Part shown: positions 23,639 through 26,445 of the stretch, one piece after another
Layout: every line of letters begins with the position of its first letter
How positions within the stretch are numbered: position 1 is the first letter of the stretch
From: a virus
DNA length: 26,445 bases
Reading direction: 5' to 3' (one strand)
Virus genome (UHGV): UHGV-0139945
Notes under the pieces: model-generated
What the model was told of the DNA's origin: nothing
Database searches by the model: none
The model's input: only the letters and a program-made list of their open reading frames with translations
Translations under genes and position numbers: made by a program

Positions 23639-23695
23639 TCCATGTCTGAACTATTGGCCACAATTTGTGGCCATTTCATGGAACAAGGTACAAAC

Positions 23696-25429
23696 ATGGC
23701 AAATTCAATAACCAAACTAAAAAAAATAAATGTAGTAAAATTCCGAGGTCTAAAAGATATAAATATAGAATTTGGCTCTCGCCTAACTGTTATTTGCGGT
23801 AAAAATGGCACGTCTAAATCAACTATCCTTGGTATTATCGCTCAAATTTTTAGTTTTTCAAAAGACTTGTCCAAGAACCCTGAGGTGGATTTAACCCAAT
23901 ATAAGACATTAACAAATGGCAGCTTCAAGTCAGCTTTCAATGAACATTTTAGACTTTCAGAACAGTTTGATACTGCCGGTTCAATGGAAGTAAAGATCAG
24001 TGTCTATGATGGTGCATCTAACAAACATCTTGAAAAACTAACTTTGGGTCTGTACAGCTCCGTTGACAGAGCAAAATCAAGACCAATAGTCAGGGGTAAC
24101 GATGCTATACCAGGGAAAAATCAAAGTAGAAACGTTACCCATCCTGTAATTTTTTTAAGCTTAGCCAGACTCCTTCCGATTACTCTTAGGACTGATTACT
24201 CGACAAGGGATGTACAGTATATTGCTGAGAACTCTGATGACATAAGAATAATGAGCAATCAACTTTTACTTAAAAACAATGGATGTTCCGTGACAGCTAC
24301 AAAAGGTACTATCGATTCAATGGTCGTACATGGTGATAATTATGATCATCAATCAGTATCTGTCGGCGAAGATAATGTAGGTCAATTAATTCAAGCATTT
24401 TTTTCATTTAAACGATTGAAGGAAATTTATGCTGATTATCATGGTGGGATATTATTAATTGATGAGGCAGATGCTGGTCTTTTTCCTGCGGCCCAATTAG
24501 AACTTATTAACATCCTCGCAAAAGCAGCTAAAAAATATGATTTGCAAATAATCATGACTTCACATTCCCCATTGATAATAGAAGATATATACAATCGATC
24601 TAAACAAGACAATAATGCTTTCAAGACAATATATCTTACAGATACCTATGGAGGCATTAAAACAAAAGATAATCTTTCATGGGCTGATATCAACGCTGAC
24701 TTGCATGTTGAAACTGTAAAAATAAATGATGACATTAGTCTTCCAAAAGCTAATGTTTATTTTGAAGATAAAGAAGGCTTCGATTTCTTCAAACAATTGA
24801 TAACGGACAGAAAAATAAACAAAATATTGAACCCACTGGGAAACATCAATATCAGCTGTACTGCTATACTGGATTTAATGGCGAGGAAAATCCCTGAGTT
24901 TACAATTAAAAGCTTGGTAGTCTTAGACGGTGATGTTGCTAATGATAATAGTGACAATGCGAAGAAAGCAAAGAAAGAGAAAAGCTTATGCTTACTTCCA
25001 AACGCCCTTCCTCCAGACCAAATGATTTTTGAATTCTTATACAACTTACCTCCTGATGATAAATATTGGAACAATCAAAATAGATTTACAAAAGCTGTTT
25101 TTTTTAAAATAGCAAAAGATATAATCACAACACTAAAAATAGGAAATCATTCTTTTAACTTACAAACCTCGATAGATAATTATAAGAAAACAAACAAAAA
25201 TTATGGTGGAGTGGTTAGAAAGCTATTTAAAGACTTCGCCCATACTCCTGAGTTCCTAGCACAAGTTAAAGGGCGTGTTAAAGATCATCCCTATCGATAT
25301 TGGGTCGAGAAACACCCTGTAGAGTCCGATAATTTCAAGCATGAATTAATCAAAAATCTTAAAATTATTATGACAAATGGACATGGTGTTGACTCTGCTA
25401 CTATCACTTCGTATCTGTCTGGCAACTGA
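23696..25429 (+). CDS. OLD/GajA-like ABC-type ATPase with C-terminal TOPRIM-like domain, 578 aa
   Basis: Start taken at MANSITKLKKINVVKFRGLKDINIEF; Walker A GKNGTSKST, Walker B LLIDEADAGLF, H-loop TSHSP; C-terminal EG..D (YFEDKEGFDFF) and DxD (VVLDGDV) about 50 aa apart as in TOPRIM; AT-rich codon usage unlike the prophage. Confidence 0.75.
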   Translation: MANSITKLKKINVVKFRGLKDINIEFGSRLTVICGKNGTSKSTILGIIAQIFSFSKDLSKNPEVDLTQYKTLTNGSFKSAFNEHFRLSEQFDTAGSMEVKISVYDGASNKHLEKLTLGLYSSVDRAKSRPIVRGNDAIPGKNQSRNVTHPVIFLSLARLLPITLRTDYSTRDVQYIAENSDDIRIMSNQLLLKNNGCSVTATKGTIDSMVVHGDNYDHQSVSVGEDNVGQLIQAFFSFKRLKEIYADYHGGILLIDEADAGLFPAAQLELINILAKAAKKYDLQIIMTSHSPLIIEDIYNRSKQDNNAFKTIYLTDTYGGIKTKDNLSWADINADLHVETVKINDDISLPKANVYFEDKEGFDFFKQLITDRKINKILNPLGNINISCTAILDLMARKIPEFTIKSLVVLDGDVANDNSDNAKKAKKEKSLCLLPNALPPDQMIFEFLYNLPPDDKYWNNQNRFTKAVFFKIAKDIITTLKIGNHSFNLQTSIDNYKKTNKNYGGVVRKLFKDFAHTPEFLAQVKGRVKDHPYRYWVEKHPVESDNFKHELIKNLKIIMTNGHGVDSATITSYLSGN

Positions 25430-25441
25430 TTGATTGAAAAG

Positions 25442-25474
25442 GGCTTTATATGATGGCCATAAAGCCTTTTTTTT
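25442..25474 (+). terminator. Rho-independent terminator after the ATPase gene
   Basis: GGCTTTAT (25442-25449) / ATAAAGCC (25459-25466) 8-bp stem, 9-nt loop, then T8 (25467-25474). Confidence 0.5.
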
Positions 25475-25508
25475 GATATACTTTAGACCTGACATTTAGA
25501 GGTATCAT

Positions 25509-26390
25509 ATGCGTTTTAACACCCCACTTCGTTATCCTGGCGGCAAAGGCAAGCTTTCAAATTTCATGCTTCGGATTATTGAAGATAATAAGCTTTCGCC
25601 TATACATTATGCAGAGCCATACGCTGGGGGGGCTGGTTTAGCGCTGAAGCTTTTACACTTAAATGTAGCTGAAAAAATCATTCTTAATGATATTAATATC
25701 TCTGTTTATGCTTTTTGGCACAGTGTATTAAATAATGCAGATCATCTGTGTGCTTTAATTGAAGAAACTGAAGTCACAATGGATGAGTGGTTCAAACAGA
25801 AAGAAATAATTAATAATCCAAAAGACCATGATATGCTAACAATTGGTTTTTCTACCTTCTTTCTTAATAGAACAAATCGTTCTGGAATATTAAAAGGCGG
25901 TGTAATTGGTGGTAAACACCAAGAAGGACAATGGAAACTTGATGCTCGCTATAATAAGAGTGATTTAATTTCTCGGATCCAGAAAATATCAAAAAACCGT
26001 GAAAAAATAGATTTGTATAACATGGATGCAATTGATTTCATAAAAAAGATAGTTGTTCAACTGCCTATGAAATCATTAACATATTTAGATCCGCCATATT
26101 ACATAAAAGGTAAGGGATTATATATCAATCATTATGAACATAGTGACCATGTTAATGTTGCAAAAGTAGTGCAGAATGATATTAAAACACCATGGATTGT
26201 TTCTTACGATAACACTCCTGAGATCCAAAGTATGTATAAGGCATCATCATTAGTGTATGGAATAAACTACAGTGCTCAAGATCGATATAAGGGCTCAGAA
26301 GTGATGTTCTTCAGTAAACGATTGAAGGTCTTTAAAACCGATGATCCAACTAAGGTAAAAGCACCCACCATTAAAAATGCTATGAGCTAG
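25509..26390 (+). CDS. Dam-family (D12-class) DNA N6-adenine methyltransferase, 293 aa
   Basis: RYPGGK near the N-terminus, AdoMet motif EPYAGGAGL and catalytic DPPY (LDPPYYIKG), motif order as in E. coli Dam / M.DpnII-type enzymes; RBS AGAGG 7 nt upstream; low GC. Confidence 0.85.
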   Translation: MRFNTPLRYPGGKGKLSNFMLRIIEDNKLSPIHYAEPYAGGAGLALKLLHLNVAEKIILNDINISVYAFWHSVLNNADHLCALIEETEVTMDEWFKQKEIINNPKDHDMLTIGFSTFFLNRTNRSGILKGGVIGGKHQEGQWKLDARYNKSDLISRIQKISKNREKIDLYNMDAIDFIKKIVVQLPMKSLTYLDPPYYIKGKGLYINHYEHSDHVNVAKVVQNDIKTPWIVSYDNTPEIQSMYKASSLVYGINYSAQDRYKGSEVMFFSKRLKVFKTDDPTKVKAPTIKNAMS

Positions 26391-26445
26391 ACGACTACCC
26401 CAAGACAGAAAAAGCGCCGTAAAAGAGCCGCAGTAAAGTCACTTT

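Follow-up and report, generated by a model that had tools for sequence, protein, structure and literature searches.

A mobile two-gene cassette pairing an OLD-like ATPase with a PD-λ-5_B methylase at the integrase end of a lambdoid prophage

The virus genome UHGV-0139945 was analysed as a single window of 26,445 nt, and the region under study was the islet at its 3' end (23639-26445), where the gene of an ABC-type ATPase and that of a D12-class amino-methyltransferase follow the integrase gene (int) of a lambdoid prophage. On balance, we favour the interpretation of this islet as a self-contained, mobile, two-gene cassette of defence type, in which an OLD-like ATPase-nuclease is joined to a methylase of the PD-λ-5_B family, carried as lysogenic-conversion cargo and gated by methylation. 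The components of this interpretation were of graded strength. That the ATPase and methylase form a functional unit was concluded with high confidence; an anti-phage function for the cassette, argued by analogy, with moderate to high confidence; and gating by methylation with moderate confidence. A nuclease activity of the ATPase, and the substrate of that activity, are points that we infer.

The association of the two genes was examined in 80 viral contigs containing a relative of the ATPase, at 40-94% identity. A methylase homologue adjoined the ATPase in 64 of these loci; six contigs ended too soon and 10 loci had no methylase. In 60 of the 64 paired loci the methylase was situated downstream on the same strand (58 with a gap of 150 bp or less), and in two it was convergent. 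When the comparison was confined to viral loci with ATPase identity of at least 43% and room downstream, the methylase was adjacent in all except one (64/65). Nine of the loci that had no methylase showed approximately 40% identity (L081-L086, L088-L090) and the other showed 44% (L095). The only one inspected was L081 (3818-5665), where a 615-aa ATPase directly followed a cI-like repressor and was itself followed by approximately 1.3 kb with no open reading frame (ORF) of 90 aa or more. Across the paired loci, the identities of ATPase and methylase to their counterparts in the window were correlated (Spearman coefficient 0.80, and 0.62 for the subset below 70% identity).

The surroundings of the pair were diverse. 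Here it adjoins int; in Pseudomonas aeruginosa prophages it follows a cI-like repressor; in Yersinia it is flanked by Q and holin; in Klebsiella pneumoniae DinI and LexA-like genes are found nearby; and in Acinetobacter baumannii it forms part of a chromosomal island. Among 91 pair-bearing loci, the upstream neighbours fell into 25 clusters and the downstream neighbours into 41, the largest of the latter (14 loci) being the P4-type integrase of a neighbouring element. No third gene was conserved among these 91 loci, and therefore nothing is missing beyond the end of the window. The closest phage relative of the window, Citrobacter rodentium phage phiNP, had the order int, ATPase and an unannotated copy of the methylase, with approximately 125 bp remaining from there to the end of the circular record; it follows that both genes are packaged with the phage as cargo, on the stretch from int to attP. 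In Escherichia coli JJ1886 the trio of int, ATPase and methylase was followed directly by the host gene glaH, and the same trio was present in 85 of 5426 complete E. coli genomes, at approximately 85% nucleotide identity. The first-pass annotation had supposed that a partner of either gene might lie past the window end; this was contradicted by the heterogeneous neighbours, the termination of phiNP so shortly afterwards and the position of glaH, all of which indicate a complete two-gene cassette. Neither a GajB helicase nor a classical restriction endonuclease was present, whether downstream in phiNP and JJ1886 or among the varied neighbours elsewhere.

Distant pairs were also observed in Vibrio phage ValB1MD-2 (H44/H37), where the genes were convergent, and in Streptococcus phages Javan645/640 (H46/H40); figures shared by both sets were 28-29% identity for the ATPase and 47% for the methylase. 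The association therefore reaches the Firmicutes.

The methylase (25509..26390, forward strand) encodes 293 aa and is preceded by a ribosome-binding site (RBS), AGAGG, at 25498-25502. It matched the PADLOC model PD-Lambda-5_B (PDLC04018) with E = 5.1e-123 and 408 bits over residues 1-283 of 293, the PADLOC model MTase_II with E = 8.6e-107, and Pfam MethyltransfD12 with E = 4.3e-17. A genuine PD-λ-5 locus from Pectobacterium, in which the upstream 483-aa gene matched PD-Lambda-5_A (2e-74), scored 415 bits on the same B model, so that the window methylase was as good a member of the family. The DPPY motif (D194-P-P-Y197) and the S-adenosylmethionine-binding motif EPYAGGAG (E36-P-x-A-G-G) were invariant across 16 relatives, and from its sequence the methylase is predicted to be catalytically intact; it was 100% identical to a protein from Klebsiella oxytoca. 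The methylase had been assigned beforehand to the Dam family. The D12 class and intact catalytic motifs agreed with that description, but the protein is not a generic Dam and belongs instead to PD-λ-5_B: against the model for canonical Dam, the orphan GATC methylase (TIGR00571), it scored 49.9 bits, below the NCBIfam cut-off of 114.85. A target other than GATC is suggested by the fact that the cloning of PD-λ-5 required an mrr-deleted K-12 host. The ST131 methylome paper gave no methylation motif for the E. coli homologue of the methylase.

PD-λ-5 itself is a two-gene system that came out of a functional selection on E. coli ECOR7, and is listed as 'ParB/HEPN, methyltransferase' (Vassallo 2022, PMC9519451). 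Its protection was broad and extended strongly to T-even phages, which have heavily modified DNA; the mrr-deleted host was needed for its cloning, and its authors described it as a compacted prophage system combining restriction-modification and abortive infection (PMC9519451). The neighbours of the methylase were surveyed in the 80 best viral loci of its family. Relatives of the ATPase described here adjoined it in 41 loci (36 upstream, five downstream), a PD-λ-5_A-like gene in 31 and some other gene in approximately five, with three contigs too short to judge; hence one of two effectors flanked the methylase in 72 of 77 informative loci. The two effector sets were disjoint, with no BLASTP match between them and a profile-profile (hhalign) probability of 0.1%, and no adaptor domain common to both was found. 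On a neighbour-joining tree of the methylases, which was rough and had no bootstrap support, the partner types interleaved and implied at least approximately nine switches; thus, the methylase is constant and the effector modular. The PD-λ-5_B methylase looks like a constant hub, with the effector as its exchangeable output.

These surveys bear on the alternative that the islet holds two independent cargo genes, that is, a single-gene abortive effector resembling P2 Old and an orphan methylase that shields phage DNA from host restriction. Class 1 OLD proteins act alone, and there is an ATPase clade that stands without a methylase; furthermore, a terminator separates the two genes, the methylase has its own promoter, and the prophage already possesses methylases of the N6_N4, C5 and PF05869 types. 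However, adjacency and order were retained across 43-94% ATPase identity and at least 25 upstream contexts, the pairing spanned Enterobacterales, Pseudomonas, Acinetobacter and Vibrio, and the two proteins co-diverged. The methylase family was almost never solitary, as the 72 flanked loci show, and one of its pairings, PD-λ-5, is a validated system that was cloned as a unit. Two unconnected genes were considered an unlikely explanation.

The intervening terminator (25442..25474, forward strand) was read directly from the sequence, in accordance with the earlier description of two genes on the same strand with a terminator between them. Its 8-bp stem is formed by GGCTTTAT (25442-25449) and ATAAAGCC (25459-25466), enclosing a 9-nt loop and followed by eight T residues (25467-25474); a terminator scan returned the same hairpin on the reverse strand only. 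A hairpin with a T-run was present in nine of 44 distinct intergenic regions, chiefly within the clade at 74-94% identity. Overlapping the terminator is the methylase promoter (25454..25482, forward strand), which comprises a -35 element TGGCCA (25454-25459), a 17-nt spacer and an extended -10 element, with TG at 25474-25475 and TATACT at 25477-25482; it was matched by the promoter scan, including the TG. With a promoter of its own just past the terminator, the methylase is therefore made independently of the effector.

The -35 hexamer was widely conserved. TGGCCA occurred in 63 of 109 distinct 100-bp regions upstream of the methylase, with either type of effector, and the sites clustered 51-70 nt before the start codon; the background frequency for these loci was 0.035 per 100 bp. 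Of 60 cases with a TAnAAT -10 element, 46 had this element at a spacing of 17 nt from TGGCCA and eight at 18 nt, and the G of the extended -10 was present in 36. Methylase-upstream regions that did not contain TGGCCA had heterogeneous -35 hexamers and no alternative palindrome. In the interval that separates the int stop codon from the start codon of the ATPase gene, direct reading and motif search identified two further TGGCCA hexamers (23655-23660 and 23668-23673; together 23655..23673); the perfect palindrome of 17 bp that they make up, GGCCACAAtTTGTGGCC (23656-23672), precedes the ATPase start codon by 23 nt. Retention of this pair, at -41/-28, was limited to the clade adjacent to int, with ATPase identity of at least 74% (12 of the 86 distinct regions upstream of the ATPase), and the pair could be an operator, a methylation-sensitive control site or an RNA hairpin. 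That the -35 element should be kept as TGGCCA, rather than TTGACA, in cassettes so divergent points to an additional role, which may be to serve as the target of the methylase itself, and TGGCCA may be the recognition site through which the methylase regulates its own expression.

TGGCCA is a documented methylation motif, carrying N6-methyladenine in Photorhabdus TT01, where no enzyme has been assigned, and N4-methylcytosine through the 'orphan DNA adenine methylase' H0N27_12600 of A. baumannii A118 and a type IIα enzyme of Shewanella algae. No link was established between the Photorhabdus, A118 or Shewanella TGGCCA enzymes and the PD-λ-5_B family, and the motif therefore stays a hypothetical target. 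The Chania/F116-like group, for which REBASE predicts TGGCCA, belongs to a different D12 subfamily. Within the window there was no avoidance of the hexamer (8 sites, where 8.1 were expected). A broader and more tentative proposal combines these features: that the PD-λ-5_B methylase is the hub of a modular, methylation-gated immunity with interchangeable output, which would be triggered by methylation status rather than by sequence and would regulate itself through a TGGCCA target, present in the methylase promoter and, in the clade of the window, also in the two-site palindrome ahead of the effector gene.

The ATPase gene (23696..25429, forward strand) encodes 577 aa, comprising an ABC-type head of the Rad50/SMC/OLD kind (residues ~1-335), a Toprim-like alpha/beta core (~345-435) and a helical domain (~440-577). 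Its longest possible ORF begins at ATG 23642, 3 nt past the int stop codon, and covers 595 aa (23642-25429). The conserved start is ATG 23696, preceded by the RBS AAGG at 23685-23688, and is the start used in distant homologues and in the RefSeq annotation of E. coli; the length of 578 aa given previously was thus essentially right. Pfam matches in the N-terminal part included AAA_15 (9.5e-16), AAA_21 (3e-12) and SMC_N. Walker A (G35-S42, GKNGTSKS), Walker B (D256/E257) and the H-loop residue H290 were invariant in 34 homologues at 49-93% identity, and with a signature-like motif they provide the ABC ATPase features of the OLD family. When the ATPase was searched against the PDB by profile, OLD (6p74), PtuA, AriA and Rad50 were recovered through generic ATPase motifs only, and the same was true of the PADLOC matches (PtuA, AriA, GajA), which were far below family thresholds; the family-specific middle (residues 60-250) matched no PADLOC model at all.

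In the C-terminal part, N353, Y355, F356, E357 and D358, as well as D411 and D413, were invariant in the same 34 homologues. The codons of the putative catalytic residues lie within 24764..24934 on the forward strand. E357/D358 (24764-24769) are placed at the end of the beta-strand formed by residues 352-356, and D411-x-D413 (24926-24934) at the end of that formed by residues 407-410. In confident AlphaFold2 (AF2) models, with predicted local distance difference test (pLDDT) scores of 88.9 for the full-length protein and 93.3 for the C-terminal domain alone, the position of these residues at strand ends corresponds to the E...DxD arrangement of Toprim. The best Foldseek match of the full-length model was the Thermus scotoductus OLD protein 6p74 (E = 1.8e-11, 568 columns), followed by GajA and retron Eco8; these three alignments spanned the whole length of the ATPase, whereas those with PtuA and SMC proteins covered the head only. 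The PADLOC retron model ATPase-Toprim_I-B gave a single aligned stretch that ran from Walker B through the acidic motifs, and some homologues are named 'ATP-dependent nuclease' by NCBI.

Other searches of this region were negative. Pfam identified no Toprim domain in the window ATPase, in 22 C-termini of the family at E values up to 10, or in 10 distant relatives taken from the 415 clusters that a C-terminal profile recovered from 1.84 billion proteins. The PDB sequence-profile search gave no significant Toprim match in the ATPase; hhalign against P2 Old aligned a single stretch, LDGDV on LADCDF (E = 0.59); and the isolated C-terminal model had no significant Foldseek match in the PDB. Given this mixture of motif, fold, Pfam and isolated-domain results, an OLD-like architecture is therefore supported, and a Toprim nuclease at the C-terminus is probable but unproven. 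The prior description of the protein as an ATPase with a TOPRIM-like C-terminus, of OLD/GajA type, accordingly stood for the overall architecture, through the full-length matches to OLD, GajA and Eco8, but not for a Toprim domain detectable by Pfam or by Foldseek of the isolated domain; the profile searches it had proposed likewise returned AAA_15/AAA_21 in the ATPase and MethyltransfD12 in the methylase, but no Toprim by Pfam. The same negative results leave some room for a C-terminal domain that is not a nuclease, but a receiver-like or Toprim-derived domain for regulation or binding, with the ATPase acting without cleavage, for instance by clamping unmethylated DNA and so blocking replication, an exclusion in the manner of BREX, or by recruiting host factors. 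With the invariant acidic residues at strand ends and the full-length structural matches on the other side, this was judged improbable.

The cassette was compared to known systems, of which PD-λ-5 was the nearest on the methylase side. The methylase belongs to the same family (408 bits here, 415 in the genuine locus), both are two-gene cassettes on prophages or mobile elements with the effector upstream and the methylase after a short gap, and the methylase promoter with its TGGCCA -35 element accompanies both effector types. They differ in the effector: PD-λ-5_A is a ParB/HEPN protein of approximately 480 aa with an EGNRR box, where the islet has a 577-aa ABC ATPase with a Toprim-like tail. 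None of the 25 PD-Lambda-5_A models was among the best matches of the ATPase, and neither the C-terminal half nor the family-specific middle matched any of them, in agreement with the hhalign probability given above. Anti-phage activity has been demonstrated solely for the ParB/HEPN version from ECOR7. Since the methylase falls in the PD-λ-5_B family, half of the module comes from an experimentally validated system, and a more apt description of the arrangement is that of a PD-λ-5 whose effector has been exchanged.

OLD proteins have been classified by gene context, as standing alone (class 1), with a UvrD-like helicase (class 2), with a retron reverse transcriptase plus a non-coding RNA (ncRNA; class 3), or split into AriA and AriB (class 4), and none of these includes a methylase (PMC10568477). 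The context observed here fits no class, 64 of the 65 informative loci having a D12 methylase as the neighbour; no helicase or reverse transcriptase was found near the ATPase in any locus examined. Class 1 proteins (P2 Old and the OLD proteins of T. scotoductus and Vibrio cholerae) resemble the ATPase in being single polypeptides of about the same length, in which a Toprim-type domain (probable in the present case) comes after an ABC ATPase, and in being lysogenic-conversion cargo of prophages, and the T. scotoductus protein is its best full-length structural match. However, class 1 stands alone by definition whereas this ATPase family is almost always paired with a methylase; the sequence likeness is also confined to ATPase motifs, and the Toprim region here is too divergent for Pfam. 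Gabija shares the overall GajA-like fold and an OLD-type first gene in a two-gene defence operon, but the partner here is a methylase, and the GajA HMMs (hidden Markov models) matched the Walker A and Walker B stretches alone. Gabija was rejected, there being no GajB helicase of UvrD/PcrA/Rep type nearby and the cassette ending with the methylase.

Resemblance to type II or ATP-dependent restriction-modification systems lay in an intact methylase beside a putative nuclease, a methylase promoter of its own, and a nuclease gene that decays while the methylase persists; the DPPY and AdoMet-binding motifs were present and the PADLOC type II methylase model was matched. Yet the putative nuclease is ABC-ATPase/Toprim-like, corresponding to no known type of restriction enzyme, and its effector family includes a clade free of methylase. 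A type II system was not accepted, as Pfam showed no PD-(D/E)XK, HNH, GIY-YIG or PLD domain in the adjacent protein. With respect to PARIS, Septu and retron type I-B (Eco8), AriA and PtuA were the best PADLOC and PDB sequence matches of the ATPase head, and the Toprim regions of AriB and Eco8 were among the best structural matches, but there was no AriB or PtuB partner, reverse transcriptase or ncRNA. PARIS and Septu were dismissed for want of AriB and PtuB and because scores were far under the cut-offs (NCBIfam PtuA, 64.8 bits against 500). MADS was rejected on its score (30 bits against a cut-off of 420).

PADLOC v2 held no model for the ATPase family and described no ATPase-methylase pairing, and no paper describing the pairing was found in the literature searched, the coverage of which was incomplete. 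In a 2025 survey, the characterised nuclease-NTPase systems were without methyltransferases. The suggestion that the islet is a candidate novel defence or restriction-like module was therefore justified in so far as the pairing was not found described, but has to be qualified, given that the methylase is already part of the validated PD-λ-5. The islet can be classified as a cassette that resembles PD-λ-5 but has an OLD-like effector, which amounts to saying that OLD-like proteins occur here in a context linked to a methylase.

The decay of the cassette was observed in A. baumannii, where an identical 287-aa methylase was listed in 8238 index blocks. Among loci L179-L188, the ATPase was frameshifted in L180, L181 and L186 (into 380 + 193 aa, or 349 + 193 aa) and interrupted by an insertion sequence in L184, and the methylase was intact. 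The effector is the dispensable or costly part, in the same pattern of decay as restriction-modification systems. An intact and independently expressed methylase, an upstream putative ATP-driven nuclease and the decay of the effector only are the reasons for which methylation-gated defence was therefore favoured. By analogy, the cassette is most likely to be a methylation-linked defence module, of restriction-like or abortive kind.

In this model, the cassette is lysogenic-conversion cargo of a lambdoid prophage, with int on one side and the attachment site on the other. The methylase would mark host and prophage DNA at a short site. The ABC ATPase head probably senses or clamps nucleic acid, and is fused to a divergent Toprim-like domain that would act as a metal-dependent nuclease. 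This effector would be kept inactive on modified self DNA, and the ATPase-nuclease would be licensed by unmodified, incoming phage DNA. One possible output is that the invader is cut or nicked, in restriction-like fashion, as in Gabija and the class 1 OLD of Vibrio; the other is that host tRNA or RNA is cleaved and infection aborted, as reported for P2 OLD and for AriB of PARIS. AriB is a tRNase. The balance is tilted slightly towards an abortive output by this activity in P2 OLD and AriB, by the HEPN domain of PD-λ-5, which is of RNase type, and by the T-even defence that PD-λ-5 provides. According to recent work, P2 OLD is a tRNase in vivo, triggered by DNA structures (bioRxiv 10.64898/2026.07.10.737580).

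Several points weigh against methylation-gated defence, at least in its simplest form. The ATPase clade at approximately 40% identity has no methylase, which implies that the effector is not necessarily lethal without methylation and argues against simple restriction of unmethylated DNA. The strong T-even protection by PD-λ-5 is better fitted by an abortive or trigger-based mechanism than by classical restriction. Three other orphan-like methylases in the prophage make a phage-protective role possible for the islet methylase also, and the argument for defence by the ATPase-methylase pairing is one of analogy.

The restriction-modification-like anatomy, with an effector that decays alone and a methylase that persists, might instead reflect an addiction module, in which loss of the cassette would dilute methylation, a long-lived effector would attack the chromosome (post-segregational killing) and defence would be a side effect. 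A location at the prophage end beside int, where excision or loss would be sensed, is compatible with this. However, the cassette is found at several places in prophages (behind cI, in the interval from Q to holin, or beside int) and, in A. baumannii, in islands outside prophages, a distribution that typifies defence morons; in addition, it was selection for phage resistance that yielded the PD-λ-5 relative, and a standalone ATPase clade is tolerated. Addiction was regarded as the least probable explanation, and methylation-gated defence was retained.

On the question of how OLD-family ATPase-nucleases discriminate between self and invader, a widespread OLD-like family that is nearly always tied to a methylase would provide a direct and testable handle. 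To our knowledge, the OLD-family classes described so far depend on a helicase, a retron or triggering phage proteins, and DNA methylation plays a part in none of them. If the broader proposal of a modular, methylation-gated immunity is correct, the cassette would represent a class of OLD-family proteins coupled to methylation, the first of its kind, and a natural case of effector swapping on a restriction-modification-like chassis. The validated PD-λ-5 is only one of two common configurations around the same methylase. The pairing was widespread among bacteria, and the OLD-like family occurred in very many assemblies of A. baumannii as well as in prophages of P. aeruginosa, Klebsiella, Yersinia and Citrobacter. 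As current annotation tools, to judge from PADLOC v2, would label this configuration an orphan methylase and a generic 'AAA family ATPase', defence content would be under-counted. In clinical species, prophage-borne cassettes could affect host range in phage therapy and gene flow.

The base composition of the islet was distinct from that of the remaining window. The G-C proportion was 0.515 for positions 1-22471, 0.446 for int and 0.346 for 23639-26445, and a sliding-window check showed that no 2807-bp stretch upstream of the islet fell under 0.481. At third codon positions, it was 0.28 in the ATPase and methylase genes, against 0.41 in int. Both the abrupt fall after the int stop and the interpretation of the islet as foreign-looking cargo at the int end of the prophage, which had been proposed from the sequence initially, were borne out. 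The int gene (22472..23638, forward strand) encodes a tyrosine integrase (Pfam Arm-DNA-bind_2, 5.5e-22; Phage_integrase, 5.3e-17), is annotated as a site-specific integrase in its E. coli homologues, and marks the prophage end.

The window represents the right-hand portion of a prophage of lambdoid type. Its genes include those for terminase gpA and the small terminase subunit, the Q antiterminator, a DUF968 protein and a cI-like repressor, together with a replication gene, xis and int. On the opposite (reverse) strand, lytic-strand genes encoded three more DNA methylases, at 7071-8123 (N6_N4 type), 10439-12409 (a 656-aa C5-cytosine methylase with a long extra region) and 12402-13304 (PF05869 phage Dam); they look like ordinary anti-restriction orphans. 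With the islet methylase included, the 26 kb thus contained four methylases.

A search for a tRNA at the attachment site gave none in the window. The phiNP record OR565852.1 contains, at 43926-44807 (L002 5927-6808), an intact 293-aa methylase ORF that is 97% identical to that of the window and is absent from the annotation of the record. Two A. baumannii records, NZ_CP077849.1 (L178) and NZ_CP064203.1, are filed as plasmids, although at 3.66 and 3.97 Mb they are evidently chromosomes. The P4-type integrase of a second element lay 3' of the methylase in L016 and 13 other loci, and also in L001 (11282-12511). Since such an integrase follows the cassette in numerous close relatives, tandem integration seems to have a hotspot at the attachment site.

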